Below, one piece after another: positions 2,555 to 35,611 of a stretch of 35,953 nt of DNA (positions within the stretch are counted from its first letter, which is position 1; every line of letters begins with the position of its first letter). This stretch comes from an uncultured Ruminococcus sp. GTDB taxonomy: Bacteria > Bacillota > Clostridia > Oscillospirales > CAG-272. Below the pieces are notes generated by a model that was given only the letters and a program-made list of their open reading frames with translations, made no database searches and was not told the origin of the DNA. The position numbers were made by a program, and so were the translations under genes. Location of the stretch: positions 1 to 35,953 of the forward strand of contig CAZISZ010000002.1 of assembly GCA_964542035.1 (NCBI GenBank), read 5' to 3'.

Positions 2555-4332
2555 CGGTACTGCCCGAACTTTTGGCTCCCGCAGGATCGCCGGAGGCACT
2601 GCGTGCGGCGGTGGCGGCGGGAGCCGACGCCGTATATTTCGGCGCGTCCGGTTTTAATGCCCGCGCCGGTGCGCGCAATTTTTCGGACGCGGAGCTTTGT
2701 CGCGCCGTAGAGCATTGCCACGCAAACGGTGTACGGGTGTACCTTACTCTAAACACGTTGGTGTATGACAGAGAGATGCGCGATTATCTTGCCGCGGCAG
2801 AGCGTGCGTATCTTGCGGGAGTGGACGCCTTGATTGTTGCCGATTTCGGCGGTGCCGCGGCAATACACCGTACATTTCCCGATTTTGAGCTTCATGCATC
2901 AACGCAAATGTCGGGGCATTCGGTGGCGGCGGCTCGCGAATTGGAAAAACTCGGTTTTTCCCGAATGGTATTGGCGCGCGAACTGTCGCGCGAGGATATA
3001 TTCGAATTCACAAAAAATTCGCCGATAGAGGCGGAGGTGTTCGTGCACGGTGCGCTGTGTGTTTGCCATTCGGGGCAGTGCCTGTTTTCATCGATGGTAG
3101 GCGGTCGCTCGGGGAATCGCGGCGAGTGCGCGCAACCCTGCCGATTGCCGTATAACGGAGGTAAATACCCGCTGTCCCTCAAGGATAATTGCCTTGCCGC
3201 GCATATTCCGGATCTGATAGAAGCCAAAGTTGCGTCGCTGAAGATAGAGGGCAGAATGAAAGGCGCGGATTATGTCGGCGGCGTGGTATCGGTATACCGC
3301 CGTTTGCTTGATGAGCGCCGCGCGGCAACTCCGCGTGAGATATCGGCGCTTGAGGGCATTTTTTCTCGGTCCGGGTTTACCGACGGCTATTTTTGCGACA
3401 GGATCGATCACGATATGCTCGGCATACGTACCGAACGAGATAAAAGGCGAACCTCTGCCTCGTCGCTCACCGCGCCCGCGCACACGGTGCAGCCTGTCGG
3501 CGAGCCGATAGAGACTCCGAAAAGAGAGCCGCATGCCGAAGAATATGCACCGATCCGCCCCTGTGGTCGTTCGGCGGTAATGCGCACGGCGCAAATGCAT
3601 TCGATACGCCAGCTGACGGCAGAGGCTCGCGCATATTTTGATATATGCTTTATACCGCTTCGCGACGCGGCAAAGTTATCCGTTCCCGCCGCGGGAAGTC
3701 ATGGGTATGCCGCGATAGGCGCGGTATTGCCGCCGGTCATTCCCGACAGCGAACTCTCCGGTGTTCGCGCCGAACTTTCGGCGGCATGTGAGCGCGGAGT
3801 GCGCGATCTTTTGATCGGTAATATAGGGCACCTTTCTTTGGCGCACGAGTTTGAAATGCGCCCGCACGGGGATATGCGGCTTAACATATGTAACCGCGAG
3901 AGCGCGGCGGCGTATGAGGCGTTGGGATTTGAAGATATGATCCTCTCGCCCGAGCTTACTCTGCCGCGACTGCGCGATATCGGCGGCAGGACGCTTAGCA
4001 TAGTTTACGGTCGCATTCCGCTTATGGTAACCGAAAAATGCGCGGGACGTGAGTGCGGAAGTTGCCGCGGCTGTGCAGACGGAAAAAACAAACTTATCGA
4101 CAGGCGCGGCGTGTCGTTCCCTGTCCTGCGTGAGGCGCGCCACCGTTCGCTTATTGTCAACAGCTTGCCCACGTCTATGTCGGATAAGCAAAAGACGCTT
4201 GACGAATACGGCTTGCGCGGTCGCCATTTTATCTTTACGACAGAAAGCGCGGCAGAGGCAGACGACGTTATTCGTGCTTTTAAGGCACGAGCGGCGATAG
4301 GCGGCGAATGCCGCCGCATAGCGCAAAAGTAA
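2551..4332 (+). CDS. U32 family peptidase-like protein (RlhA/UbiU-type Fe-S enzyme family)
   Basis: 593 aa. N-terminal ELLAPAGS...GADAVYFG, LKIEGRMK, and the U32 cysteine motif CVCHSGQC...GECAQPC. Translationally coupled to zapA. Confidence 0.85.
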   Translation: MTVLPELLAPAGSPEALRAAVAAGADAVYFGASGFNARAGARNFSDAELCRAVEHCHANGVRVYLTLNTLVYDREMRDYLAAAERAYLAGVDALIVADFGGAAAIHRTFPDFELHASTQMSGHSVAAARELEKLGFSRMVLARELSREDIFEFTKNSPIEAEVFVHGALCVCHSGQCLFSSMVGGRSGNRGECAQPCRLPYNGGKYPLSLKDNCLAAHIPDLIEAKVASLKIEGRMKGADYVGGVVSVYRRLLDERRAATPREISALEGIFSRSGFTDGYFCDRIDHDMLGIRTERDKRRTSASSLTAPAHTVQPVGEPIETPKREPHAEEYAPIRPCGRSAVMRTAQMHSIRQLTAEARAYFDICFIPLRDAAKLSVPAAGSHGYAAIGAVLPPVIPDSELSGVRAELSAACERGVRDLLIGNIGHLSLAHEFEMRPHGDMRLNICNRESAAAYEALGFEDMILSPELTLPRLRDIGGRTLSIVYGRIPLMVTEKCAGRECGSCRGCADGKNKLIDRRGVSFPVLREARHRSLIVNSLPTSMSDKQKTLDEYGLRGRHFIFTTESAAEADDVIRAFKARAAIGGECRRIAQK

Positions 4333-10539: not shown

Positions 10540-11451
10540 ATGAAACGCTCGGATATTCGCATACGTGATCCGTTTATTGTAAACGACGGAGGAATCTATT
10601 ACATGTACAGCGCGACCTGCTCGGCTGACGGTCGCACCATAGAAGTATATCGCAGCCGCGATCTTGAAGAATGGGATGATCCCACAGTGGTATACAGACT
10701 TGATACCTCCACATGGCGCGAGCGCGAGCTTTGGGCACCCGAGGTACATAAATACCGCGGCAGGTTTTATCTTTTGCTTTCCATACTTGGTAAAGAGGGA
10801 CTGCGCGGCACGGAGATATCCGTCAGCGATACGCCGGACGGGATGTTTTTGCCCATTTCCGATGCTCCCGCCACGCCTGCCGGGCAGAGCTGTATTGACG
10901 GAACTTTGTGGGTGGACGGCGATCGCCCTTATATGATCTACTCGCACGATTGGCCGGATAATTACGATGCCGAGAGCGATTCATACATCGGTCAGATATG
11001 CGGCGTGGAGCTGAGCGAGGATCTTACACACGAAGTCGGCGAGCCGTTTGTGATGTTTGATTCTTCCGATGTGCCATATTCCGCAGCCGCGCCTTCAAAA
11101 GCCTTGAGAGGCGGCAAAACGCTGACTCGCTACGGTTCCGACGCGCCGTTTATAAACAGGCTGGCAGACGGCAGACTTCTGCTTACATGGTCGCCTTATC
11201 CCGGTAACAATTATGTGGTATTGGGGGCTGTTGCAGAGGATATTCGCGGGCCGTGGCTGCATTTTGAACAACCTATATACGACGGCAACGGCGGTCATGC
11301 AATGTTTTTCCGCGATTTCGGCGGACGTCGCATGATCTGCATGCATCAGCCCGAGCATTGCCCCGATGAGCGAGCAATGATACTGCCGTTGTTGACTTCA
11401 TCCAAGCTTTTTCTGCCGGATGACATAAAAAAACTATTGACGGACGATTGA
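10540..11451 (+). CDS. Glycoside hydrolase family 43 protein (arabinofuranosidase/xylosidase-like), no signal peptide
   Basis: 303 aa with IRDPFIV..GIYYMY, ELWAPEVHKYRGRFYLL and CIDGTLW, typical of five-bladed propeller GH43 enzymes. Confidence 0.8.
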   Translation: MKRSDIRIRDPFIVNDGGIYYMYSATCSADGRTIEVYRSRDLEEWDDPTVVYRLDTSTWRERELWAPEVHKYRGRFYLLLSILGKEGLRGTEISVSDTPDGMFLPISDAPATPAGQSCIDGTLWVDGDRPYMIYSHDWPDNYDAESDSYIGQICGVELSEDLTHEVGEPFVMFDSSDVPYSAAAPSKALRGGKTLTRYGSDAPFINRLADGRLLLTWSPYPGNNYVVLGAVAEDIRGPWLHFEQPIYDGNGGHAMFFRDFGGRRMICMHQPEHCPDERAMILPLLTSSKLFLPDDIKKLLTDD

Positions 11452-11791: not shown

Positions 11792-12556
11792 TTATCCTAT
11801 ATCCTGCCGCAGTGCGGCAAGAAGAGCCGCGTCTGTACGTTCTGTCATGAGCGGAGTTATGGAGATGAAACCGTCGGAGACTGCGTCGGTATCCACGGTG
11901 CTGTTGTGACGGTTTTGAAAAACCTTTACCCCCTCCGGTTTAAACATTCCGTCTCCTATATCGCGAAAAACGTCGCGGTAAAAGGGACCGCCCTGACGTG
12001 TCAGGGTTATCTCCCCCGCCTGCGGAGGTATGTTTATGTTGTAAAGCGTGCCGCGATCAAGCAGTCTGTTTTGCGATATGTAATCCCAAACGCGGTCAAG
12101 CGTCTCGGCGCTTACCGGCGGGGTTGATAAGTCTTCACCGACGGCACGATAGTGGGCGGAAAACGCCAGAGAGCGGCGCCCTAACAAGCCTGATTCAAAC
12201 ACCGCGCCCGCGGTACCGGAATAAACGATGTCGGCACCGAGGTTATAACCGCGGTTGATGCCGGAAAATACAAGGTCAAACCTGCCTTCTGCCGCCTCTA
12301 CGGTTGAAAGACCGAAACGCACGCAATCGGCGGGGGTGGAGTCAACATAATAAACGGCGTGCGCGCCGAGGTAGTCCCCAACCGAGGGGAGTTTTTTTAT
12401 TTCAACCGCATCCGTGATATTGATCGAATGGCTCATGCCGCTCTGTTGACGTTTTGGAGCCACAATCGTAACCTCGCCGAGTTTTTGCGCCCAACGGGCA
12501 AGCGTTTTTATGCCTATCGCGTCAATGCCATCGTCATTGGTAATAAGGATTCTCAC
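11792..12556 (-). CDS. surE: 5'/3'-nucleotidase SurE
   Basis: 254 aa with the classic N-terminus MRILITNDDGIDA and a GINRGYNLG motif. The start overlaps the stop of the upstream DHH gene. Confidence 0.9.
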   Translation of the reverse strand: MRILITNDDGIDAIGIKTLARWAQKLGEVTIVAPKRQQSGMSHSINITDAVEIKKLPSVGDYLGAHAVYYVDSTPADCVRFGLSTVEAAEGRFDLVFSGINRGYNLGADIVYSGTAGAVFESGLLGRRSLAFSAHYRAVGEDLSTPPVSAETLDRVWDYISQNRLLDRGTLYNINIPPQAGEITLTRQGGPFYRDVFRDIGDGMFKPEGVKVFQNRHNSTVDTDAVSDGFISITPLMTERTDAALLAALRQDIG

Positions 12557-24354: not shown

Positions 24355-25776
24355 TCAATACTCGCAAGTGGCACTGATTTTACCGTCGCCGGTCATTTCG
24401 ATGACGGTAAGACCGCGGTCGCTGACGATATAATGCTCAATGCCGAGGTTTGCCAGCTTCTCGGCAAAACTCGTCCACGGTGCGTCGTCACTGTCGGATA
24501 TCAGTATGCGCGGGGAGACGGCTGAGATCCATTCATCGGTATTGGATGTAAACAGCCCGTGGTGGTTGGTCTTGGCGATGTCGGCGTGAAGCGCCTCGCC
24601 GAGATCTTTTGCTAAACGGCGTTCGCGACTTGCGTAAAGATCGCCCGATGTAAGATATTTAAGATCGCCGAAGTTAAATATCATGCCAAGGGAGGTGTTG
24701 TTGACACCTTCTGTATCGGTGATGCGCTCGGCCGATGACTCAACTTCTTCTCGGCTCGGATTGAATATATCTACCGCGACCTCTCCGAACTCCAAACGAT
24801 CGCCCTCGCAAATATTACACCGCAACACCGCTCCCTGCGCGGCAAGCAGTTTTTTTATTTTTTTATCAAGGCCTTTGTGCGCGTAGCCGGAATAAATGAA
24901 TTCGCCTATCCTGCCGCCGCGCGATGCAATGTAATCGATAACCTTGTTTATGCCGCCGAAATGGTCGCTGTGCGGGTGGGAGAGAACAAAATAATCAATG
25001 GATTTCAGCCCCATCGCGTCGATAAGTTCGATCACGTGTACAAAGCACGCGGGAAGCCCCGCGTCTATCATTATCGTTTTGCCGTTGGGCAGGACGATAA
25101 CGGTACAATCGCCGGATTTACCGTTGACTCCCGGTACGCTGAGGTCGGGGGCGACGATATGCATGTTTCCGTCGCCTCCGCGGCGCACGATATCACCTGC
25201 GGCGGAGGCAAGTTCGTAGTATCGTTTTGAATGAGCGCGATAGTAGAAGTGCGCACCCAAAAGTCCGTCGTTGCCGCGTGCGGATGTGCCGACGCGTACG
25301 CGGCGGCGCCACTCAAGCTCTGTTCCGGCATATCTTACGGTTTTTATGGCGGCGTCGTGCATAAAGCATTTAAAATCCACCGCTCGCAATGAGGACGGTA
25401 ATTCTATATATTCAAGGCTTTTGCAGTTTTCAAAAACCTTGGGAGCGAGCACTCGCACGCCCTCCGCAAATCTTACACTGCGCAGACGCGGACATTCGGA
25501 AAAAGAGCGGTACGCAACGATATCCACACTGCCTGCAATATCAATGCGAACAAGTGCGGGAAAACCGCTAAAGGTCAACTCGCCGATTTCCGTTATTCCA
25601 TTCTCTATCTTTATTTCTTCCACCTTGTCGCGAAAAGGGAGAAAAGGTGAGCTGTCGGTGTTTTTAAATGGGGCAAGCGCCCCCTTGCCGGATACGGTAA
25701 GCACGCCGTTTGAAAATTCAAACACCGCCTGCTCTCCGCACTTTCCGCGAATGTTGTCGTGTACGTTTATCTTCAT
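24355..25776 (-). CDS. Fusion protein: BspA-type leucine-rich repeats (N-terminal) plus MBL-fold metallohydrolase (C-terminal)
   Basis: 473 aa. The N-terminal ~160 aa are LRR units (ITEIGELTFSGFPALVRIDI..., cap VRYAGTELEW). The C-terminal part has TVIVLPNGKTIMIDAG, HPHSDHFGG (HxHxDH) and KTNHHG. No signal peptide is visible. Confidence 0.75.
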   Translation of the reverse strand: MKINVHDNIRGKCGEQAVFEFSNGVLTVSGKGALAPFKNTDSSPFLPFRDKVEEIKIENGITEIGELTFSGFPALVRIDIAGSVDIVAYRSFSECPRLRSVRFAEGVRVLAPKVFENCKSLEYIELPSSLRAVDFKCFMHDAAIKTVRYAGTELEWRRRVRVGTSARGNDGLLGAHFYYRAHSKRYYELASAAGDIVRRGGDGNMHIVAPDLSVPGVNGKSGDCTVIVLPNGKTIMIDAGLPACFVHVIELIDAMGLKSIDYFVLSHPHSDHFGGINKVIDYIASRGGRIGEFIYSGYAHKGLDKKIKKLLAAQGAVLRCNICEGDRLEFGEVAVDIFNPSREEVESSAERITDTEGVNNTSLGMIFNFGDLKYLTSGDLYASRERRLAKDLGEALHADIAKTNHHGLFTSNTDEWISAVSPRILISDSDDAPWTSFAEKLANLGIEHYIVSDRGLTVIEMTGDGKISATCEY

Positions 25777-27044: not shown

Positions 27045-28100
27045 TCACCCCAATGTTTTTAGCTCCGCTTGTGCGTTAAGCGTTTCGGCGTCATCGCCGA
27101 GGAGCGACAGAAGTTCCTCGCGTGTGCCGGCATAGTTTATGGTTTTAAGATGTTCGCAGCCGACCAATGCTCCGGATTCGATTTTTCGGAGAGAGGCGGG
27201 CAATGTTATGCTTTCGATAGCCGAACATCCCCCAAAGGCGCGGTAGCCCAAAAACTCGACGCCCTCGCCGAGTGTAATATCGGTCAGCGCCGTGCAACCG
27301 TCAAATGCGCGTTGATTTATCGTAATAAGCCCGGTGCCGAATGTTACGCTTTCGAGAGATGTGCATACACTGAATGCTTTTTCGCCTATAACCGTTACGT
27401 TGTCGGGTATGGTGACGGAGGTGAGCTTTTCGCAACCGTAAAACGCTCGTTCGCCTATTGTTTTTATAGACGGCGGCAGTGAAACGGAGGTTAAAAACTC
27501 GCATCTGTAAAAGGCGCGTTCGGCAATGCCGCGCACAAGCACACCGTCAAAAACATCCGGAACGATTATATTTCCGCCGCCTTTGTACAGTTCGGAGTCG
27601 AATGTTAACATGCCATCTTCATTCGTATCGGTATCAAAGGAGAACCACGGCGTGTCGGCGGTGCTGCCTACCACCACATCGTCGCGACCCGCGAGGGTGC
27701 GCGCCTGTTCCAAAATACACCGCTCAACATAATCGTCGCTGTCGCGGTAGTTGCCCATTTCGTCAAAAATATCAAGCGCGCGCATATATTCGCCCTCATC
27801 AAACAGTGCTACGGCATTGTTGTAATTGCGGTTGGGAATTATCACGCGGTCAAACAGTATCACTGCGCCTACGGTTACGGCTATGAGACTAAAAGCCGCA
27901 GTAGATATGGCAATCGTCAATCTGCGTTTTTTCTTTTTCTGTGTGGAGAGGGTGGCACGGCGCCGATGCTTGGCGCGTTCGCGGTAGATTTGTTGACGTT
28001 CGGCGCTCGTCAGGTGGCGGCGCGGAGCATCGGCGGTTGAATTTGTGTCGGAGCCGTTATCCGCGTTTTTTTCGCGAGAATCAAACTCGGGTGCGGTCAT
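27045..28100 (-). CDS. Single-pass membrane protein with an extracellular BspA-type leucine-rich repeat domain
   Basis: 351 aa. It has a basic N-terminus (KHRRR...KKKKRR), one TM helix, and about six ~23-aa repeats (FYGCEKLTSVTIPDNVTVIGEKAF...) ending in INYAGT. ATGA overlap with the upstream gene. Confidence 0.7.
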   Translation of the reverse strand: MTAPEFDSREKNADNGSDTNSTADAPRRHLTSAERQQIYRERAKHRRRATLSTQKKKKRRLTIAISTAAFSLIAVTVGAVILFDRVIIPNRNYNNAVALFDEGEYMRALDIFDEMGNYRDSDDYVERCILEQARTLAGRDDVVVGSTADTPWFSFDTDTNEDGMLTFDSELYKGGGNIIVPDVFDGVLVRGIAERAFYRCEFLTSVSLPPSIKTIGERAFYGCEKLTSVTIPDNVTVIGEKAFSVCTSLESVTFGTGLITINQRAFDGCTALTDITLGEGVEFLGYRAFGGCSAIESITLPASLRKIESGALVGCEHLKTINYAGTREELLSLLGDDAETLNAQAELKTLG

Positions 28101-29131: not shown

Positions 29132-29160
29132 TTGACTTGTCGGTAAAAATGGTATATAAT
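29132..29160 (+). promoter_or_regulatory. Near-consensus sigma-70 promoter driving the riboswitch operon
   Basis: TTGACT at 29132-29137, a 17-nt spacer, and TATAAT at 29155-29160. Confidence 0.7.
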
Positions 29161-29204
29161 AATATATGGATGTCGGCGGTTTGTCCGTTGACCGAAAAAA
29201 CAAA

Positions 29205-29405
29205 TACATCGCGGTTCCGCGGCACACGCCGCAGGATCAGGGGGAAGTTCGGTGAAAATCCGTCGCAACGACCATTACCGTAATTGAGCCGCAGCTCATA
29301 AGTCGGAATACCTGCCGTGATGTTATAAGGGTAAGCTCTTGGGTAAGAAGACAGCTGTTCCGACTCGCACCGCGGTGGAGGAGGCAAAAAATGCGCTCTC
29401 TGCCG
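29205..29405 (+). promoter_or_regulatory. Cobalamin (B12) riboswitch
   Basis: Core motifs appear in the canonical order: GGGAAG at 29242-29247, GGTGAAAATCC at 29251-29261, ACCGTAA at 29276-29282, and the B12 box AGTCGGAATACCTGCC at 29301-29316. The helix cacg..gcagg (29225-29235) pairs with cctgccgtg (29311-29319). The boundaries are approximate. Confidence 0.8.
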
Positions 29406-29423: not shown

Positions 29424-29463
29424 GCGTCTTATTTCCGAGGTGAAGCGAAATAAGGCGTTTTTT
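29424..29463 (+). terminator. Riboswitch expression-platform intrinsic terminator
   Basis: Stem gcgtcttatttc/gaaataaggcg with one G-U pair, followed by TTTTTT at 29458-29463, just upstream of the first RBS of the operon. Confidence 0.75.
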
Positions 29464-29497
29464 GTTGCCTTTTCAAAACATTGTGAGGAACCCCGAT

Positions 29498-29788
29498 ATG
29501 GAATATACAAAAGAATATTGCATAGCACTTCTCGTAAATATGGGAGCGCTGCTTGCCGAGGCGGGAGAGCAGCGGTTACCCCGAAGATCCGATTTTTCGG
29601 AACGCGAGGTGTGTGCCATTAAAGCGCGTCTCGGTCCGTGGCCTCGTGCGCTTGAGGAGGCGGGATTAAAAGCTCCGCGAGACGGCGATCACGCGGAACG
29701 TAACCGAGAAAAGCGTATACGCGCCAAGCGCAAAATAAACGCCGCACGCCGCGCCGCAAAACAAGATATACCTTTGGATAAAGAATAA
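29498..29788 (+). CDS. Small basic protein with a single homing-endonuclease-associated-repeat-like (HNH_repeat-like) helical domain
   Basis: 96 aa counted from the ATG at 29498, with a GAGGA RBS about 8 nt upstream. YTKEYCIALLVNMGALLAEAG..LPRRSDFSE....RLGPWPRALEEAGL resembles the '...FGSWnkALeeAGL' repeat. The tail is Lys/Arg-rich. Confidence 0.5.
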   Translation: MEYTKEYCIALLVNMGALLAEAGEQRLPRRSDFSEREVCAIKARLGPWPRALEEAGLKAPRDGDHAERNREKRIRAKRKINAARRAAKQDIPLDKE

Positions 29789-29839: not shown

Positions 29840-30646
29840 ATGAAAACAGCAAGATTGATCACGATTTTACTCACTTTGGTATTGCTCGCAATGTCGCTCT
29901 CGCTCGGTGTGTCGGCGTCTGAGAACCCCACTGTATATGTTACGGTGTCAAATAGCACGGTAAAGCTTGCGCACTCGCCTGTGCAGGTCACCGATGTTGA
30001 CGGCGACGGTAAACTTACGATAAACGACGCGCTTGCTTCGGCGCATGACGCGTATTTCGAGGGTGGCGCTGCTGCGGGTTATTCTTCCGCCGCAAGCGAG
30101 TGGGGACTTTCCCTTACCCGCCTTTGGGGCGTTGAAAACGGAGGCAGTTACGGCTATTATCTCAATAATGCCGCCGCAATGAGTCTTGCCGATCCTGTTG
30201 TCGATGGCGACAGCATCTATGCCTTCGTTTATACCGATACCGTCGGATTTACCGATATCTATTGCTATTTTGACAAAAATACTCTGAGCGCCGAGACCGG
30301 GGAGAGCGTTACTCTCACGCTTTCAAGCGCAGGATACGACGCCAACTGGCAGCCTGTCACCGCGCCCCTTTCCGGTGCCGTTATTACCGTTGACGGCAAG
30401 GTGACCGATGTAAAAACCGATGAGGCGGGTCGCGCCACTCTTACGCTTACCGAGGGCGAGCATTCTATAAGTGCGGTTCATGACGAAAAACATATAACAC
30501 CTCCCGTTTGTGTGGTAACGATAACCTCGGGAGATGCTCCGCAGACCGGAGATAACGGCGTGGTTTATACCTGTCTTGTTGCCATCGCAACGATTACGGT
30601 AGGTCTCGGTGCGTTTATTGCACACCGTAAGGATAATGCGGCGTAA
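29840..30646 (+). CDS. Cell-wall-anchored surface protein: signal peptide, DUF4430 (transcobalamin-like beta domain)-like module, Ig-like module, sortase-type sorting signal
   Basis: 268 aa. Signal peptide ...SLGVSASE. GLSLTRLWGVENGGSYGYYLNN....ADPVVDGDSIYAFVY resembles the DUF4430 signature. The C-terminus is APQTGD, then a hydrophobic helix, then HRKDNAA. Confidence 0.6.
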   Translation: MKTARLITILLTLVLLAMSLSLGVSASENPTVYVTVSNSTVKLAHSPVQVTDVDGDGKLTINDALASAHDAYFEGGAAAGYSSAASEWGLSLTRLWGVENGGSYGYYLNNAAAMSLADPVVDGDSIYAFVYTDTVGFTDIYCYFDKNTLSAETGESVTLTLSSAGYDANWQPVTAPLSGAVITVDGKVTDVKTDEAGRATLTLTEGEHSISAVHDEKHITPPVCVVTITSGDAPQTGDNGVVYTCLVAIATITVGLGAFIAHRKDNAA

Positions 30647-32321
30647 GTTAAATATAAAGCAGAGTATCATCGCAATTTTCTCGGCGGTGATACTTGCTTT
30701 TTCGTTTGTCGTTCAAGCGTCGGCTGTTTCTTCAACCTCCGAAATCGGTGTCGGAGGCAACTACGATCTTGACGGTGAGGCAGAAGCGATCTTCGCGGAG
30801 CTTTGCCGCGCGGACGGCGCGGAGAGTCTCGCCGAGTGGGTTGAAACCTCTCTTGCACCGCGTGCGGGTGACGGTGTCGAATGGTATATTATAGCTCTGC
30901 GGCAGGCGCACCCGGAGGTTGATCTTTCGGTATACGCGAACGTTCTTGAGACGCGCATGCAGAGCGGCGAGATAAAAGGTGCGGTGGCGCGCCAACGTTG
31001 CGCGCTCGCATTGACGGCATGCGGCAGAGGAGATTCGACGACGGTATCCTCGGTTATGGATGAAACTATCGGTGGGCTTGGGCTGATGAGTTACATTTTC
31101 GGGTTAAATCTTATGAATTCCGGAATTGCTTCGCACACCCGCACGTCGGATGATGTGATAGACGCCATTCTTGCGGCTCGCCTTGAGGGCGGCGGCTGGG
31201 CAATTATCGGACACGTTGCGGAAGCCGATGTTACCGCCATGGCGGTTCAGGCATTGGCGCCGTACCGAGAGCGGCGCACGGATGTGAAAGAGGCAACCGA
31301 TACGGCAATCGAATTATTGATCTCCGATATGCGTGACAGCGGCACATATATCAGTTACGGTACGGAAAACCCGGAATCGGCGGCGCAGGCGGCAATGGCA
31401 TTTGTCTCTTGCGGTATTGACCCGGAGTATGATTCGCGCATGGAGGGACGGCGCACGCTTATTGACGGTATTTTTGCTTTTCGCTTGGCGGGCGAGGGCT
31501 TTTCACACACCGCGGGCGGCGGATATAACGCAACCGCTACCGTGCAGTCTCTTTTGGCGCTCATCGCCGTGAGCCGCGCGCGCCGCGGCATTGGCGGTAT
31601 GTATGTTTTTGATACCGAGTCGGAGTTGACCGGAACCGCCGAATCCGTTGGAACAGATATAACGGATACGATATTTGCGAACAGTATGGCGGCAACGGTT
31701 GAATCTGTCACGACCGCCGCAGAGGATTCGTTACGATCTCACGCAGACGGTGAAAAAATAAAATTTTGGATAGTTACGGGCATTGTTGCGGCGGCTGTAG
31801 TTGCGGCGGTGTGTTTTTATGTTCGCGGTTGGCGGCATAAGAAGAATTTTGTTTTTATTGTTTTCACGGCGGTTGCGGCGGTGATGTTGGTTTTACTTGC
31901 CGATATCAGAACGGCAAACGATTACTACGCAGGTACAACTTCAATTGACGGTGATGTGCCGAGAATCGGTGTGAGTATATCGATTCGATGCGATGAGGCT
32001 CTCGGGGTTGTTGAACTTGAAAGCCTCCCGACCGACGGTGTGATACTGAATGAGACGGTGATTGATATCGCCTATGACGGCACGGTGCTTGACGCGCTCA
32101 CGGAAGCGGCGAGAGTCTACCGTTTGCAACTTGAATATTCGGGCGGCGGCAGTATGGCGTATGTCTCGGGTATAGAATATCTTTACGAATTCGACGGCGG
32201 AGAGCTTTCAGGGTGGATATACCGAGTAAACGGAGAGGCGCCGAGCGTGGGATGCGGGGGGTACAAGCTTTCGGACGGCGACGTCATTGAGTGGGAGTAC
32301 ACTCTCGTTCCGAAATATTGA
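30636..32321 (+). CDS. Membrane-tethered transcobalamin-like protein: signal peptide, alpha/alpha-toroid (prenyltransferase/terpene-cyclase-like repeats), TM hairpin, C-terminal DUF4430 domain
   Basis: 561 aa counted from the ATG at 30636 (MRRKLNIKQSIIAIFSAVILAFSFVVQASA). Toroid-type repeats are present (EGGGWAIIGH..DVTAMAVQALAP; NPESAAQAAMAFVSCG; YNATATVQSLLALIAV). Two TM helices flank RGWRHKKN. The C-terminus is YVSGIEYLYEFDGGELSGWIYRVNGEAPSVGCGGYKLSDGDVIEWEYT, the classic DUF4430 pattern. Confidence 0.7.
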   Translation: MRRKLNIKQSIIAIFSAVILAFSFVVQASAVSSTSEIGVGGNYDLDGEAEAIFAELCRADGAESLAEWVETSLAPRAGDGVEWYIIALRQAHPEVDLSVYANVLETRMQSGEIKGAVARQRCALALTACGRGDSTTVSSVMDETIGGLGLMSYIFGLNLMNSGIASHTRTSDDVIDAILAARLEGGGWAIIGHVAEADVTAMAVQALAPYRERRTDVKEATDTAIELLISDMRDSGTYISYGTENPESAAQAAMAFVSCGIDPEYDSRMEGRRTLIDGIFAFRLAGEGFSHTAGGGYNATATVQSLLALIAVSRARRGIGGMYVFDTESELTGTAESVGTDITDTIFANSMAATVESVTTAAEDSLRSHADGEKIKFWIVTGIVAAAVVAAVCFYVRGWRHKKNFVFIVFTAVAAVMLVLLADIRTANDYYAGTTSIDGDVPRIGVSISIRCDEALGVVELESLPTDGVILNETVIDIAYDGTVLDALTEAARVYRLQLEYSGGGSMAYVSGIEYLYEFDGGELSGWIYRVNGEAPSVGCGGYKLSDGDVIEWEYTLVPKY

Positions 32322-32357: not shown

Positions 32358-33236
32358 ATGCAAATGTGCGAATTCGGCAGATATCATCCGCTGGTGACGT
32401 TTTTATATTACCTTTCCGCGGCATCGGCGATCATGTTTTGCCATGATCCTCGTATCATCGTCACGGCGCTGTGCGTCGGCATCATCGAGCGCGCGGCGAT
32501 ACATCGCGATGCGGCATGTATGGGATGGACGGCGCTCATTATTTCGGTATCAGCTATCCTCAACGCCGCCGTTTCGCATAACGGTAAGACCGTTTTGTTC
32601 TTTGTCGGCGATATGCGCATCACTGCGGAGGCGTTGCTTTACGGCGTTTCGGCAGGCGCGGCGATTGCCGCCGTGCTGAATATTTTTAAATCATTTTCAA
32701 ATTATATGACTTCGGATAGACTTCAGTGCCTACTTGGAGTCGTTTCTCCCAAACTGGCGCTTATGCTTTCGGTGGCACTGAGGTATATTCCGTATCTTTG
32801 GCGGCGGTCGGGCGATGTTCGGCTTGCACAGCGCGGCGCGGGACTTTACCGTGACGGCAGCCTGCCCGAGCGTATAACGGGGGATGCGCGTGTGTTTTAT
32901 TCGCTTGCCGCAGGCGCGCTTGAGGACGGTATAGTGACCGCCGACAGTATGAGCGCACGCGGCTATGGAACGGGGCGGCGTACGTCTGTTTCGCTCTATC
33001 GTTTCGGATGGCGGGATGCGTTGTTTTTGCTTCCGGTTGCGGTAATCGACGCTATCCTTATAGCGGCGGGCGGTTGCGGATATCTCGAATTTGAATTTTA
33101 TCCGACGCTCGGTATGCCGAACGGTGATACGATTGCGCATATCGCTTGCGCGGCGTTTGCTTTTTTGATGCTTATGCCGCTTATAAATGATGCCGCAGAG
33201 GTGATAAGATGGAAATACTTGCTCTCAAAAATTTAA
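32358..33236 (+). CDS. ECF transporter transmembrane (T) component, CbiQ/EcfT family
   Basis: 292 aa polytopic protein with two coupling-helix Ala-Arg-Gly type motifs (LAQRGAG, MSARGYG). It overlaps the ATPase gene. Confidence 0.75.
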   Translation: MQMCEFGRYHPLVTFLYYLSAASAIMFCHDPRIIVTALCVGIIERAAIHRDAACMGWTALIISVSAILNAAVSHNGKTVLFFVGDMRITAEALLYGVSAGAAIAAVLNIFKSFSNYMTSDRLQCLLGVVSPKLALMLSVALRYIPYLWRRSGDVRLAQRGAGLYRDGSLPERITGDARVFYSLAAGALEDGIVTADSMSARGYGTGRRTSVSLYRFGWRDALFLLPVAVIDAILIAAGGCGYLEFEFYPTLGMPNGDTIAHIACAAFAFLMLMPLINDAAEVIRWKYLLSKI

Positions 33237-34861
33237 GTTTTTGTTATGCGGGGGAAAGTGTTACGGCACTGGACGGGATAGATCTTTCCGTTCGTGCGGG
33301 GGAAGTTATACTGCTTGCCGGAGGAACGGGGAGCGGTAAATCCACCCTTTTGCGTTTGATAAAAAGAGAACTTTCACCTCGCGGCGAACTGCGCGGGGCG
33401 ATAGAGTTTTTCGGTCGCCCGATATCGGAACTTGCCGACCGCGAGGCGGCTGCGCGCATAGGATATGCGGCGCAACGTCCGGAGGAGCAGATAGCGACAG
33501 ACCGCGTATATCACGAGTTGGCATTCGGTGCCGAAAGTCTGGGGTGGAGTCCGAATCTTATTCGTCGTCGCGTTGCCGAGGTGGCATCCTATTTTGGCAT
33601 AGACGAGTGGTTCGAACGCCCCACATCGGAACTTTCCGGAGGACAGCGACAGCTTTTAACGGTTGCGTCGGTTATGGTGACCGACCCCGATATCCTTTTG
33701 CTTGATGAGCCCACCTCACGTCTTGATCCGATTGCGGCGGCAGATTTGATGTCCGCCGTTTTGCGCCTTAATCGCGAACTCGGAACCACGCTCATCATAG
33801 CCGAGCATCGTATGGAAGATATTCTGCCATATGCCGACAGGCTTATGGTTTTGGACGGCGGTAGGATGACGATATGCGATGCTCCGCGCCGTGCGGCGGC
33901 AGCGTTGTCGTTGCAATCTCCCGTCTTTGCTTCGCTTCCCGCCGCGGCAAGGCTTTGGAGGGAGTCAGCAGATGCGTGCGGCACTGTGTGTGATTGTCCG
34001 TTGAGCGTTAAGGAGGGGCGAGAATTTTTTGCCGAATGTATGAATACCGAGCCTGTTACGCACGCCGGATCTCAAAAAGCCGAAAAGCCGAAAGCGCCGC
34101 AAAAGCGGGATTCGGCGATAGAGTTAAGAGATGTATTTTTCAGGTATTCTCGTGATGGGGATGACGCACTTCACGGACTTAACGTGAAGATATTCAAGGG
34201 CGAAATATACTGTTTTCTCGGTGGTAACGGATCGGGCAAATCCACTGCTCTTTCGGTAGCGGCGGGACTTCGCCGTCCGTATGTCGGCAGTATACGCATC
34301 TTCGGTCGCCGCCCCGCGGCGTGGGGAGAGCAACTTTACAGCGGCATTGTGGGATATCTTCCGCAGGAGCCGGAGATGCTTTTTCTGTATGACAGCGTGG
34401 AGGAGGAACTTGCCTCGGCAGGACTTTCGATAAAAGACCTGCCGCCCGAACTTGTCTTGCCCGCGGCTCGTCATCCGTTTGATCTTTCCGGCGGTCAGCG
34501 CGAGATGTTGGCGCTTGCCAAGGTACTTGCTCGTCGCCCACGTATTTTAATGCTTGACGAACCCACTAAAGGGCTCGACGCCTCGGCACGCGCCGCGCTT
34601 TCCGCGCTTCTTTGCCGCCTGCGCGATGAAGGCATAACGGTGATAGCCGTTACACATGACGCCGAATTTGCCGCCGAGACGGCAAACAGATGCGGTTTTT
34701 TGTTTCGAGGCGAATTGATATCCGAGGGAGAAGTGCGGGGATTTTTTGACGGTAACGCCTTCTACACCACCCCCGCCGCGCGTATCACGCGCGGTATGGC
34801 TCGCGGTTGCGTGACCGTCGCTTCGGCGCGCGAACTGATATCGGTCGGTAGCGGCGCATGA
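33209..34861 (+). CDS. ECF transporter fused double ATPase (EcfA-EcfA' / CbiO-type)
   Basis: 550 aa with two complete ABC cassettes: GGTGSGKST / LSGGQRQ / LLLDEPTS and GGNGSGKST / LSGGQREM / LMLDEPTKGLD. Confidence 0.9.
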   Translation: MEILALKNLSFCYAGESVTALDGIDLSVRAGEVILLAGGTGSGKSTLLRLIKRELSPRGELRGAIEFFGRPISELADREAAARIGYAAQRPEEQIATDRVYHELAFGAESLGWSPNLIRRRVAEVASYFGIDEWFERPTSELSGGQRQLLTVASVMVTDPDILLLDEPTSRLDPIAAADLMSAVLRLNRELGTTLIIAEHRMEDILPYADRLMVLDGGRMTICDAPRRAAAALSLQSPVFASLPAAARLWRESADACGTVCDCPLSVKEGREFFAECMNTEPVTHAGSQKAEKPKAPQKRDSAIELRDVFFRYSRDGDDALHGLNVKIFKGEIYCFLGGNGSGKSTALSVAAGLRRPYVGSIRIFGRRPAAWGEQLYSGIVGYLPQEPEMLFLYDSVEEELASAGLSIKDLPPELVLPAARHPFDLSGGQREMLALAKVLARRPRILMLDEPTKGLDASARAALSALLCRLRDEGITVIAVTHDAEFAAETANRCGFLFRGELISEGEVRGFFDGNAFYTTPAARITRGMARGCVTVASARELISVGSGA

Positions 34862-35544
34862 TCGTAATAAAAAACGCGCGCCTGAGGCGCGCACTGTCGA
34901 TCGTGCTTCCGTTTGTTATTATTCCCGCGGTGGTGGCAATAGGCGTTTGGGTGTTTGACGAAAAATACTATGCCGCTGTGTCGGCGGTTGTGGCGCTGCT
35001 GTCTTTGTTGCTTTTTGCCGCGGGTTTTGAACGCAAAAAAACAGGATCGCGGCGACTTGTTGTGCTATCGATAATTACAGCACTTTCGGTGGCGGGGAGA
35101 TTTATTCCGCTTTTTAAACCCATTACCGCGCTGACTGTTCTTACCGCCGTCCACCTCGGAGGCGAGGCGGGTTTTCTGGTGGGCGCTATGTCGGCACTCA
35201 TTTCCGACCTGTATTTCGGCATGGGACCGTGGGCACCTTTTCAAATGCTTGCGTGGGGGCTTATCGGGCTGATAGCGGGTTATCTCGGACGTTCGATGCG
35301 CCGCCGTATGTGGTTTACGGTCGTATACGGTGCACTTGCCGGTGTGATGTTTTCGCTTATTATGGATGTGTGGACGGTTTTGTGGTATAACGATGGATTT
35401 TCCGCCGAGCTGTACGTCGCCGCGTGCATAAGCGCGCTGCCGCACACTGTGCTCTATGCCGTTTCGAATGTGATCTTTTTGCTTCTTCTTGCCAAACCGT
35501 GGGCAAAACGTATCGAGAGACTAAAACTGAAATACGATATTTAA
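34858..35544 (+). CDS. ECF transporter substrate-specific (S) component, probably corrinoid-related by context
   Basis: 228 aa with about 6 TM helices and the motif GMGPWAPFQMLAWGLIGLIAG seen in S components. ATGA coupling to the ATPase gene. A terminator follows. Confidence 0.65.
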   Translation: MIVIKNARLRRALSIVLPFVIIPAVVAIGVWVFDEKYYAAVSAVVALLSLLLFAAGFERKKTGSRRLVVLSIITALSVAGRFIPLFKPITALTVLTAVHLGGEAGFLVGAMSALISDLYFGMGPWAPFQMLAWGLIGLIAGYLGRSMRRRMWFTVVYGALAGVMFSLIMDVWTVLWYNDGFSAELYVAACISALPHTVLYAVSNVIFLLLLAKPWAKRIERLKLKYDI

Positions 35545-35570: not shown

Positions 35571-35611
35571 GACGACTGTCATGTGCCGAATATGACGGTC
35601 GTCACTTTTTT
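35571..35611 (+). terminator. Intrinsic terminator of the riboswitch operon
   Basis: 12-bp stem gacgactgtcat/atgacggtcgtc with one G-U pair, followed by cTTTTTTg. Confidence 0.75.

Follow-up and report, generated by a model that had tools for sequence, protein, structure and literature searches.

How can the two lobes of a transcobalamin-like protein be joined through a membrane, and which ligand and transporter would such an arrangement serve? The question is raised by a 561-aa protein encoded in the window (i.e. the whole stretch of DNA analysed here: 35,953 nt of contig CAZISZ010000002.1, assembly GCA_964542035.1, from an uncultured Ruminococcus sp. (CAG-272), forward strand), in which a signal peptide is succeeded by a 12-helix alpha/alpha toroid, a disordered Thr/Ser/Glu-rich linker, a TM-RGWRHKKN-TM hairpin and a DUF4430 domain (Table 1). 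Its open reading frame was listed as 30609..32321, and translation from the ATG at 30636 yields the 561 aa. An alternative GTG start at 30609 would add length to the n-region of the signal peptide and nothing else.

Table 1. Coordinates, in the window, of the transcription unit and of the segments of the 561-aa protein
Feature	Position (nt)	Strand	Evidence or remark
Promoter-like site TTGACT-17-TATAAT	29132..29160	+	11/12 consensus matches, upstream of riboswitch; consensus scan alone
Cobalamin riboswitch aptamer (RF00174)	29195..29333	+	40.7 bits vs gathering 31.5, E 4e-7
Candidate expression-platform terminator	29424..29464	+	12-bp hairpin GCGUCUUAUUUC...GAAAUAAGGCG, then U6
Small basic cytoplasmic protein, 96 aa, HNH_repeat (PF18780)	29498..29788	+	Pfam E 1e-5
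268-aa wall-anchored surface protein	29840..30646	+	directly upstream of the 561-aa protein gene
561-aa transcobalamin-like protein (whole ORF incl. stop)	30636..32321	+	ATG overlaps the upstream gene's stop by 11 nt
Signal peptide, aa 1-30	30636..30725	+	predicted cleavage ASA|VS
Alpha domain, aa ~40-326, 12-helix alpha/alpha toroid	30753..31613	+	AF2, Foldseek, family profile
Disordered T/S/E/A-rich linker, aa 327-374	31614..31757	+	pLDDT <50
TM helix 1 (out-to-in), aa 375-396	31758..31823	+	hydrophobicity, AF2
Cytoplasmic basic loop RGWRHKKN, aa 397-404	31824..31847	+	family consensus KKRxxKN
TM helix 2 (in-to-out), aa 405-422	31848..31901	+	hydrophobicity, AF2
Juxtamembrane segment	31902..31961	+	YY at aa 430-431, about 90% conserved
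Beta domain, aa 443-556, DUF4430/SLBB (transcobalamin-like beta-grasp)	31962..32303	+	Pfam, AF2, Foldseek
EcfT (CbiQ family) transmembrane coupling subunit	32358..33236	+	PF02361, E 3e-6; conserved in related loci
Fused EcfA-EcfA' double ATPase	33209..34861	+	two ABC_tran domains; TIGR04521/04520
CbrT-related ECF S component	34858..35544	+	6fnp_A E 5e-8, aligned to aa 64-225
Operon terminator-like hairpin	35571..35603	+	14-bp stem, then T run

The first-pass annotation had proposed a cleavable signal peptide, and the N-terminus (MRRKLNIKQSIIAIFSAVILAFSFVVQASA|VSS) indeed combines a basic n-region, a hydrophobic core (KD 2.32) and an A-S-A site. It had further assigned ~330 aa to a terpene-cyclase/prenyltransferase-style toroid: the type of fold was upheld by the family profile and by the Pfam matches of homologues, whereas the size had to be revised to ~290 aa. 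The Thr/Ser/Glu-rich linker that it described (T9 S6 E5 D4 A7 among the 45 residues of aa 327-371, pLDDT <50), the two TM helices around RGWRHKKN (nt 31758-31901) and the C-terminal DUF4430 domain (PF14478, aa 483-556, E 9.4e-18, 64.9 bits vs a cut-off of 23.8) were all recovered. Across the family the linker is the most variable region (entropy 2.89), and the TM helices (2.0-2.25) are more variable than the domains (1.5-1.7). The alpha domain holds the motif EADVTAMAVQALAP (family consensus SDVDVTAM..QALAP, with D198 and M202 invariant), the flanks of the hairpin (YK and YY) are conserved, and the near-invariant residues of the beta domain are C452, C540, W527 and Y555, the first of these being 99% conserved and kept even where C540 is lost.

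AlphaFold (AF2) modelled the protein at pLDDT 84.8 and pTM 0.68. The alpha domain (12 main helices over aa 45-316 at pLDDT >90) is confident and all-helical, the TM hairpin has a pLDDT of ~93, and the beta domain too is modelled with confidence. When this model was compared with the PDB by Foldseek, the best 15 matches were all transcobalamin (TC), haptocorrin (HC) or intrinsic factor (IF) (E 5e-8 to 8e-7), in alignments of ~555 columns covering both domains, which bears out the claim of a transcobalamin-like two-domain fold; glucuronyl hydrolase, prenyltransferases and terpene cyclases ranked lower (E 2e-4 to 2e-3). The Foldseek RMSDs are large (9-15 A), and different entries of one and the same protein gave TMt values between 0.52 and 0.63; the beta domain set against that of TC (5no0) gave a TMt of 0.78, and it also matches 3u7z. 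At the level of sequence, the alpha domain (aa 1-355) had no Pfam match even at E<=10 (PF01122 included), and the family profile, run against PDB sequences, found no transcobalamin and matched terpene cyclases alone (SQHop_cyclase_C structures 7xqz/8zg5, E ~1e-12); homologues of the protein carry precomputed PF13243/PF00432 matches. As neither a PF01122 match nor a transcobalamin profile match was obtained, the 561-aa protein is, as judged by sequence, outside the eukaryotic cobalamin-binding family.

Since a cleavable signal peptide occurs together with a loop between the TM helices that is strongly basic (positive-inside rule), both lobes are predicted to be extracytoplasmic and linked through the membrane, in agreement with the outward orientation originally suggested for them; all 80 loci retain the signal peptide as well as the basic loop. 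The family comprises 5,683 clusters (50% identity) at E<=1e-30 and occurs in 572 species genomes or more, which are essentially all from rumen/gut Clostridia. The layout of signal peptide, toroid, linker, TM helix, basic loop, TM helix and DUF4430 was found in 52/52 database homologues (33-69% identity), in all 80 loci from different species genomes (loop with 3-6 K/R and 0-1 D/E) and in 142 of the 146 top representatives of the 5,683 clusters at 50% identity, and because it is kept throughout these sets the hairpin is genuine and no artefact. Among toroid relatives, P0055, P0056 and P0063 carry one C-terminal TM helix and a basic tail, P0059 a PATGD anchor, and P0061 a lipobox together with a direct alpha-beta join that has no TM helices. 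Most plausibly, the hairpin originated when a C-terminally TM-anchored alpha protein was fused to a beta protein with an N-terminal signal anchor.

The gene belongs to a single transcription unit (riboswitch, HNH_repeat protein, 268-aa protein, 561-aa protein, EcfT, EcfA-A' and S component), which has one promoter-like site and one terminator. The cobalamin riboswitch is the sole Rfam match in the window; downstream of it, the MFE fold contains the hairpin of the candidate expression-platform terminator, although the region has no significant z-score. The 96-aa HNH_repeat protein is encoded by the first gene 3' of the riboswitch, a position that it also occupies in about 50/80 related loci and at L081. 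Among solved structures, the S component is closest to CbrT, from the B12 importer ECF-CbrT (6fnp_A, E 5e-8), and it further possesses a conserved extra N-terminal TM pair (aa 15-33 and aa 39-57). The cassette (small protein, 268-aa protein, 561-aa protein, EcfT, EcfAA' and EcfS) is conserved in most of the 80 species loci, and the gene for the 561-aa protein directly precedes EcfT in most of them. A cobalamin riboswitch was found upstream of 22 of the 29 related loci tested, and two split loci (L059 and L074) have a separate one for each half. Moreover, the pair formed by the 268-aa protein and the 561-aa protein is riboswitch-controlled where it lies away from ECF genes (L035, L043, L057 and L068), as are alpha-only relatives at L081 and L082. 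In 3/80 loci (L004, L007 and L042) the gene stands alone: neighbouring ECF genes are missing and no riboswitch reaches the gathering threshold. The link to B12 that had been drawn from the sequence is thus supported by the riboswitch that heads this operon and the related loci, and by the CbrT-like S component.

The 268-aa protein is composed of a signal peptide, a ~115-aa N-domain, an Ig-like domain and PQTGD followed by a TM helix and a basic tail (a sortase-type wall anchor; Gram_pos_anchor E 0.03; AF2 pLDDT 91.2). In the AF2 model its N-domain has a beta-grasp/SLBB-like strand order, b-b-a-(b-hairpin)-b-b-b, and hhalign aligned it collinearly but weakly (E 0.05) with the beta domain of the 561-aa protein; the 268-aa protein had no DUF4430 match in Pfam, and its Foldseek matches were to Ig/FN3 only. 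Its family (1,481 matches) pairs with the 561-aa protein in about 74/80 loci, and we propose that it is an outer corrinoid binder.

Taken together, these observations make it likely, in our judgement, that the 561-aa protein is the membrane-tethered extracytoplasmic corrinoid-capture subunit of a dedicated ECF-CbrT-type importer repressed by a B12 riboswitch. In such a system the signal peptide would export the toroid, TM1 would stop the transfer so that the basic loop remains cytoplasmic, and TM2 would re-initiate export and place the DUF4430/SLBB beta domain outside; the hairpin would consequently double as inter-domain linker and membrane anchor, a role in which transcobalamin employs a flexible soluble loop. 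By analogy with TC/IF/HC, we infer that the toroid face and the beta domain would close on a single corrinoid beside the transporter, and that this would then be handed to the CbrT-like S component for import by EcfT/EcfA-A', while the wall-anchored 268-aa protein would probably act further out, in a wall-to-membrane-to-transporter relay. Against a capture subunit it has to be counted that ECF S components normally operate without an extracytoplasmic binding protein, and that ECF-CbrT works without one (PMC5997447). We also counted against it that the alpha domain matches terpene cyclases by sequence and not transcobalamin, that the gene stands alone in the three loci mentioned above, and that the L. 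sakei operon, the sole related one studied by experiment, has been reported as a heme importer.

The last of these points touches the choice of ligand. The same domains in the same location could serve a ligand other than B12 (a different tetrapyrrole, e.g. heme, or incomplete corrinoids such as cobinamide only), and in the related L. sakei operon deletion and overexpression did alter heme content (10.1101/864751), cobinamide being moreover also imported by ECF-CbrT (PMC5997447); we nevertheless regard this as decidedly improbable, given the cobalamin riboswitch on the window operon and on the 22/29 related loci (including those in which the accessory pair is alone), the CbrT-like S component, and the lack of any sign of a heme- or iron-responsive element. 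Unlikely, if to a lesser degree, is that the hairpin is a fusion scar and anchor with no coupling to a transporter, the protein being a free-standing surface B12 store or a binder that starves competitors. The single TM helix and basic tail that end the alpha-only relatives P0055, P0056 and P0063, the moderate conservation of the TM helices, and the loci in which the pair lies away from ECF genes or the gene is alone would all suit such a reading; the retention of the hairpin in nearly all of the best cluster representatives, the conservation of its loop (KKRxxKN) and of its YK and YY flanks, and the position of the gene directly before EcfT speak for coupling, as does the conserved two-TM extension of the S component, which is absent from CbrT and could be a docking partner.

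Could the toroid instead be an enzyme, either a terpene-cyclase/prenyltransferase relative acting on lipids or isoprenoids, or a corrinoid-modifying protein (a decyanase via Cys452, cf. BtuM)? The family profile matches SQHop_cyclase_C (E 1e-12), D198 is invariant, C452 is conserved as described, and the consensus SDVDVTAM resembles the DxDDTA motif of class II cyclases, which we counted in favour of an enzyme. The catalytic DxDD motif of class II cyclases is, however, absent from the family motif D-V-D-V-T-A-M: its third Asp is replaced by Val (in 110/132 sequences, with Asp not among the four commonest residues), and its first is Glu in the window protein (E-A-D-V-T-A-M). Furthermore, the domain is predicted to be exported, away from isoprenoid diphosphates, its best structural matches are non-enzymatic B12 carriers, and the operon contains transporter genes but none for biosynthesis, which leaves an enzyme very improbable. 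Even less credence is given to cleavage at TM2 as an internal signal peptide, by which one gene would yield two products, the alpha protein staying anchored via TM1 and the beta protein being released. Although TM2 ends L-L-A|D in the window sequence, in line with a loose -3/-1 rule, and the alpha-like and beta-like proteins of L. sakei are separate polypeptides (10.1101/864751), the -1/-3 residues vary from one homologue to the next (LV|D, LL|D, LT|R or FT|N), the hydrophobic stretch of 18-19 residues exceeds a typical cleaved h-region, and AF2 gives a continuous helix. That two neighbouring genes were joined artificially, through misassembly or a frameshift, was assigned a negligible probability, and nothing but the unusual layout speaks for it; such an artefact is ruled out by the uninterrupted layout in independent genomes of all 80 species and in 142/146 best cluster representatives, from many studies.

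The capture subunit favoured here would put a transcobalamin-like binder and an ECF importer of the CbrT type under the control of a B12 riboswitch, in a family that is unnamed and very abundant. If binding and hand-off hold true, the system would be a Firmicute counterpart of the BtuG/BtuH capture machinery of Bacteroides, a new way to join the two lobes of a ligand clamp (i.e. through the membrane) and a bacterial relative of the human B12 carriers that lends itself to experiments. ECF transporters are the textbook case of ABC importers without an extracytoplasmic binding protein. It is conceivable, though we consider it doubtful, that the hairpin docks onto the two-TM extension of the S component, which would give the first ECF importer with a permanent extracytoplasmic binding subunit and, with the wall-anchored 268-aa protein, a three-step Gram-positive B12 relay from wall to membrane to S component, analogous to BtuG/BtuB in Bacteroides. 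On the same doubtful reading the family would be the closest living bacterial form of the TC/IF ancestor, and Cys452 might even serve as cobalt ligand or decyanase, as in BtuM. In a 2019 survey the B12 transport systems of many gut genomes were still to be identified (PMC6593275), and the family could improve predictions of B12 auxotrophy and uptake in microbiome models.

Among known systems, class II terpene cyclases and prenyltransferase beta subunits share with the 561-aa protein a toroid of detectable sequence similarity, whereas its own domain is predicted to be extracytoplasmic. Bacteroides BtuG/BtuH, surface high-affinity binders that feed a membrane transporter in a competitive gut niche, offer a functional analogy alone, and the same applies to the wall-to-membrane relay logic of the Staphylococcus Isd heme system: folds (beta-propeller, NEAT), envelopes and transporters (TonB/BtuB or type II ABC) are all unrelated to those considered here. 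TC, IF and HC (PDB 2bb5, 4kki, 2pmv and 7qbg) have in common with it an N-terminal 12-helix toroid followed by a C-terminal SLBB/DUF4430 domain, an extracellular location (predicted for the 561-aa protein) and B12 biology; their short soluble linker is replaced in the 561-aa protein by about 45 disordered residues and TM-loop-TM, and the protein is membrane-anchored rather than secreted, with a predicted delivery to an ECF transporter instead of an endocytic receptor.

That toroid and SLBB proteins scavenge B12 is an idea known since 2007, when Burroughs, Balaji, Iyer & Aravind described, in silico, a transcobalamin-like clade of such proteins in low-GC Gram-positives, encoded in CbiO/CbiQ operons and predicted to be B12 scavengers, and proposed that animals obtained transcobalamin and intrinsic factor from a bacterial ancestor (PMC1796856). 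The signal peptide and the combination of toroid and SLBB recur here: the 561-aa protein has both the signal peptide and the SLBB-toroid fusion, with EcfT and the double ATPase encoded directly downstream. That clade often has a second extracellular partner protein too, for which the 268-aa protein is the candidate here. In the 2007 text, toroids fused at the N- or C-terminus and anchors of the Gram-positive kind are described; a TM hairpin between domains and a link to a riboswitch or a CbrT-type S component are absent (PMC1796856); what is new is the through-membrane linker, which appears to be undescribed. In L. sakei, the exported TC beta-like and alpha-like proteins Lsa1839/Lsa1840 were proposed to capture a ligand and pass it to the S component of the ECF transporter Lsa1836-1838 (S, A-A' and T), which the same operon encodes (Verplaetse et al., 10.1101/864751); there alpha and beta are made as two polypeptides and heme was reported as the substrate, whereas the 561-aa protein is one chain, with lobes predicted to be joined through the membrane, under cobalamin-riboswitch control. 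Finally, ECF-CbrT of Lactobacillus delbrueckii (6FNP; Santos et al. 2018, PMC5997447) is an ECF-type importer of B12 and cobinamide with a homologous S component, and its type of components (EcfT, EcfA/A' and a CbrT homologue) is present in the window together with a cobalamin riboswitch. CbrT relies on an ECF module of the shared kind (group II), and no extracytoplasmic accessory protein is known for it (PMC5997447), in contrast to the window system, which possesses a dedicated operon, two accessory surface proteins and an S component with two extra N-terminal TM helices.

The transcobalamin-like gene belongs to a unit on the forward strand (see table) that begins with a promoter-like site and a cobalamin riboswitch, the sole Rfam match in the window, and continues through a small cytoplasmic protein, a surface protein and the target (which overlaps the preceding gene by 11 nt, from its own ATG to the stop codon of that gene) to the components of an ECF importer. 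A candidate terminator hairpin exists behind the riboswitch, although the z-score for its folding falls short of significance. The remainder of the window carries ordinary housekeeping genes; the opposite strand encodes, a short way upstream of the operon, two BspA-type LRR_5 proteins (24355-25776 and 27045-28100, one of them fused to a metallo-beta-lactamase domain), in all likelihood surface proteins with no connection to the target.

Features of the riboswitch-headed operon and of the transcobalamin-like protein (target) encoded within it
Feature	Position	Strand	Basis or remark
Promoter-like site, near-consensus	29132-29160	+	upstream of riboswitch
Cobalamin riboswitch	29195-29333	+	Rfam, 40.7 bits
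Candidate terminator, 12-bp hairpin + U6	downstream of riboswitch	+	folding
96-aa basic protein, HNH_repeat	29498-29788	+	PF18780, E 1e-5
268-aa surface protein	29840-30646	+	
Target, open reading frame	30609..32321	+	ATG at 30636, 561 aa
Target	30636-32321	+	
Target, signal peptide	aa 1-30	+	ends VVQASA/VSS; sequence and Kyte-Doolittle scan
Target, T/S/E/A-rich linker	aa 327-371	+	sequence and Kyte-Doolittle scan
Target, TM1	aa 375-396, nt 31758-31823	+	Kyte-Doolittle scan
Target, basic loop RGWRHKKN	aa 397-404, nt 31824-31847	+	sequence
Target, TM2	aa 405-422, nt 31848-31901	+	Kyte-Doolittle scan
Target, DUF4430 domain	aa 483-556	+	Pfam, E 9.4e-18, 64.9 bits (cut-off 23.8)
EcfT/CbiQ	32358-33236	+	
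Fused EcfA-A' double ATPase	33209-34861	+	
ECF S component	34858-35544	+	
Strong terminator-like hairpin	35571-35603	+	closes the unit

Sequence inspection and the Kyte-Doolittle scan place a long soluble region after the signal peptide of the target, and the first-pass annotation proved accurate both in its position for the transmembrane hairpin (about 31758-31908, found at 31758-31901) and in its C-terminal DUF4430 domain, which Pfam recovers. The AlphaFold2 model, built from an alignment of 52 homologue sequences (A1; mean pLDDT 84.8, pTM 0.68), has 12 main helices across aa 45-316 (pLDDT >90); the linker is disordered from aa 328 to 370 (pLDDT <50) and leads into a pair of long helices (aa 372-396 and 402-421, pLDDT ~93), with a confident alpha/beta domain at aa 443-556. 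The proposed likeness to transcobalamin was borne out by a Foldseek search of the PDB, in which ranks 1-15 (15 of the 15 best matches) are all transcobalamin, haptocorrin or intrinsic factor (E 4.6e-8 to 7.5e-7; alignments of ~530-570 columns across both domains; target-normalised TM-score 0.52-0.63), with unsaturated glucuronyl hydrolase, prenyltransferase beta subunits and class II terpene cyclases ranked lower (E 2e-4 to 2e-3). The same model also matched 5no0, the beta domain of transcobalamin on its own (TMt 0.78), and 3u7z, a DUF4430 protein from structural genomics. At the sequence level, PDB searches with the protein and with its family profile returned SQHop_cyclase_C-type terpene cyclases only (best E 1.3e-12) and no transcobalamin, so that the relationship rests on the fold and on DUF4430; no Pfam family matched aa 1-355 even at E<=10, and by sequence the target falls outside the eukaryotic family PF01122. 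We consider that the protein, as modelled, is built like transcobalamin, and that it would probably also work like one.

Within the toroid, the family consensus SDVDVTAM (EADVTAM in the window protein) reads as a vestige of the cyclase DxDDTA motif, DxDD being the motif of class II cyclases. Val stands at the position of the third Asp, and two residues, D198 and M202, are invariant. Near-invariant positions of the alpha domain are H291, H158, M151 and M202. In the beta domain, Cys452 (nt 31989-31991) is 99% conserved and Cys540 (nt 32253-32255) 92%; since Cys452 is kept in the 11 of 132 sequences that have no Cys540, it must be more than a disulfide partner, and by analogy with the Cys of BtuM a role as cobalt ligand is conceivable.

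The combination of an N-terminal signal peptide with two internal transmembrane helices is present in all 52 homologues (33-69% identity). When each species was represented by one genome, relatives turned up in at least 572 genomes. The 80 best come exclusively from Clostridia MAGs of gut and rumen origin (Ruminococcus, Oscillospiraceae, Lachnospiraceae, Acutalibacteraceae, Christensenella and others); each of the corresponding 80 loci encodes the hairpin, with a loop (consensus KKRxxKN) in which 3-6 residues are Lys/Arg and 0-1 are Asp/Glu. Searched exhaustively with the profile, 1.84 billion cluster representatives yielded 17,141 proteins at E<=1e-3, of which 5,683 reached E<=1e-30, and the best 150 matches align nearly all end-to-end with the profile; the hairpin was found in 142 of the 146 representatives checked among them, the other four being giant multi-toroid proteins of 1.5-2.2 kaa. 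These giants (P0209, P0210, P0224 and P0324), which hold several toroid copies, in some cases with one DUF4430 domain, and no hairpin, seem to be multivalent forms of the binder at the cell surface. Mean column entropy (TM1 2.25, TM2 2.04, linker 2.89, alpha domain 1.73, beta domain 1.47) shows that conservation of the transmembrane helices is intermediate, between that of the linker and those of the domains. The flanks of the hairpin are conserved as well (YK ahead of TM1; YY at aa 430-431, ~90%, past TM2); a YY motif common to this juxtamembrane segment and to an outer loop of the S component (DEKYY) was dismissed, as it is not conserved in S homologues.

With regard to topology, the cleavable signal peptide would export the toroid, TM1 would act as a stop-transfer helix, and TM2 would act as an N-in signal anchor exporting the beta domain. 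The inter-helix loop is predicted to be cytoplasmic because it is the most basic segment (positive-inside rule); a cytoplasmic loop and a signal-anchor TM2 together would make both lobes extracytoplasmic. The outward orientation proposed earlier for both modules is thus in agreement with these sequence rules. The hairpin would take the place of the soluble linker between the transcobalamin domains and also of the anchors of relatives, which comprise one C-terminal transmembrane helix with a basic tail (P0055, P0056 and P0063), a PATGD anchor (P0059) and a lipobox in a protein whose alpha domain is joined directly to the beta domain (P0061). Because relatives carry such other anchors, it is plausible that the hairpin arose by fusion of a C-terminally membrane-anchored alpha protein with a signal-anchored beta protein; as no split alpha/beta gene pair was found, we only infer this origin.

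Comparison of the cassette (phmmer of six window proteins against the ORFs of the 80 loci) revealed that most loci hold the small protein, the 268-aa protein, the target, EcfT, EcfAA' and EcfS in the same order, while five (L026, L044, L047, L051 and L070) have a permuted order (T-AA'-S-268-target) and two (L059 and L074) a split cassette. Among the 29 loci covered by the Rfam scan, 22 have a cobalamin-class riboswitch directly upstream. In the split cassettes each half (268-aa protein and target; small protein, EcfT and EcfAA') has its own riboswitch, in four loci (L035, L043, L057 and L068) the 268-aa/target pair stands alone under a riboswitch with no adjoining ECF genes, and the loci of alpha-only relatives (L081 and L082) are likewise riboswitch-controlled; therefore, the accessory proteins are themselves tied to corrinoid availability. 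Three loci (L004, L007 and L042) hold a solitary target gene, and no riboswitch reached the gathering threshold there; the copy of L004 has unrelated neighbours (HD/OB, PfkB, deacetylase), with no alternative transporter beside it. Furthermore, one operon (L019) has a riboswitch of the AdoCbl-II class (4067-4141) ahead of it in place of the classic cobalamin aptamer, another locus (L009) has a second cobalamin riboswitch (12114-12313) downstream of the cassette and ahead of another gene, and a third (L020) carries a group II intron (D1-D4 domains, 10798-11087) immediately 3' of the ECF S gene. Homologues of the small protein hold the first position after the riboswitch in about 50 of the 80 loci, stay with the ECF half in both split cassettes, and also head the alpha-only locus L081.

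The 268-aa protein belongs to a large unnamed family (1,481 hits); together with the target, it is under the control of a cobalamin riboswitch of its own even where the ECF genes sit elsewhere. Its AlphaFold2 model (pLDDT 91.2) consists of a signal peptide, an N-domain, an Ig-like domain and, behind the motif PQTGD (PxTGD in the family consensus; weak Gram_pos_anchor match, E 0.03), a C-terminal helix, which by this motif is a predicted sortase-type anchor. The modelled N-domain shows the element order of the transcobalamin-like SLBB clade (beta-beta-alpha-(beta hairpin)-beta-beta-beta). Whole-alignment hhalign of the two families aligned the signal peptides only, and the domain-trimmed comparison with the beta domain of the target was non-significant (E 0.05, 27% identity, 81 collinear columns), a likeness that is only suggestive of a second SLBB paralogue. 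Foldseek of the model returned Ig/FN3/Rib matches and none for the N-domain, for which neither a Pfam model nor a PDB match was found. Invariant residues of the family are D52, D54, D56, H69 and W96.

The best solved relative of the S component is chain A of 6FNP (E 5e-8), that is, CbrT of ECF-CbrT, an experimentally characterised B12/cobinamide importer (PMC5997447). The window protein has ~60 additional N-terminal residues (aa 1-60, 34858-35040, forward strand) forming two transmembrane helices (aa 15-33 and 39-57), which are kept in 66 homologues and missing from CbrT (6fnp_A), and this extra pair might be the membrane partner of the target hairpin.

Given the observed architecture, fold, conservation, operon and regulation, the best-supported reading, which we regard as fairly probable, is that the target is a membrane-tethered corrinoid-capture subunit, with topology, ligand, clamp geometry and hand-off as presumed here: a single cobamide would be clamped between the toroid and the beta-grasp domain at the outer face of the membrane, next to the ECF complex, the clamped cobamide would pass to the CbrT-like S component, and the 268-aa protein, anchored in the wall, would pick up ligand at a greater distance from the membrane. 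A different tetrapyrrole as ligand would have a precedent in the Lactobacillus sakei operon, which was reported as a heme system, but the cobalamin riboswitch data speak against it. An enzymatic toroid is at odds with the degenerate DxDD motif and with export of the domain, and splitting of the chain by signal peptidase after TM2 is unlikely, given a hydrophobic stretch of 18-19 residues and the lack of conservation at positions -1 and -3. The view of the hairpin as a pure anchor, or as a fusion scar with no coupling role, is partly compatible with the data, and an assembly artefact as source of the layout is refuted by its fixation across a very large family.

Proteins of this kind are already known in silico: Burroughs, Balaji, Iyer and Aravind (2007; PMC1796856), who defined the SLBB superfamily, described bacterial SLBB domains of the transcobalamin-like clade in fusion with alpha/alpha toroids; the proteins have signal peptides or Gram-positive anchors, and their operons contain CbiO/CbiQ-like genes and often another extracellular SLBB protein. 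These authors predicted a role in scavenging B12 and proposed low-GC Gram-positives as the source of animal transcobalamin. The central idea of the first-pass annotation is supported and, in view of that prediction, not new. In the searchable literature we found no description of a transmembrane hairpin as inter-domain connector, of its near-universal conservation across thousands of clusters, of riboswitch control of the 268-aa/target pair, or of a CbrT-type partner with an extra transmembrane pair. In the ECF operon of L. sakei (Verplaetse et al., 10.1101/864751) the transcobalamin alpha-like and beta-like modules reside on separate proteins, whereas in the target both are carried on one chain.
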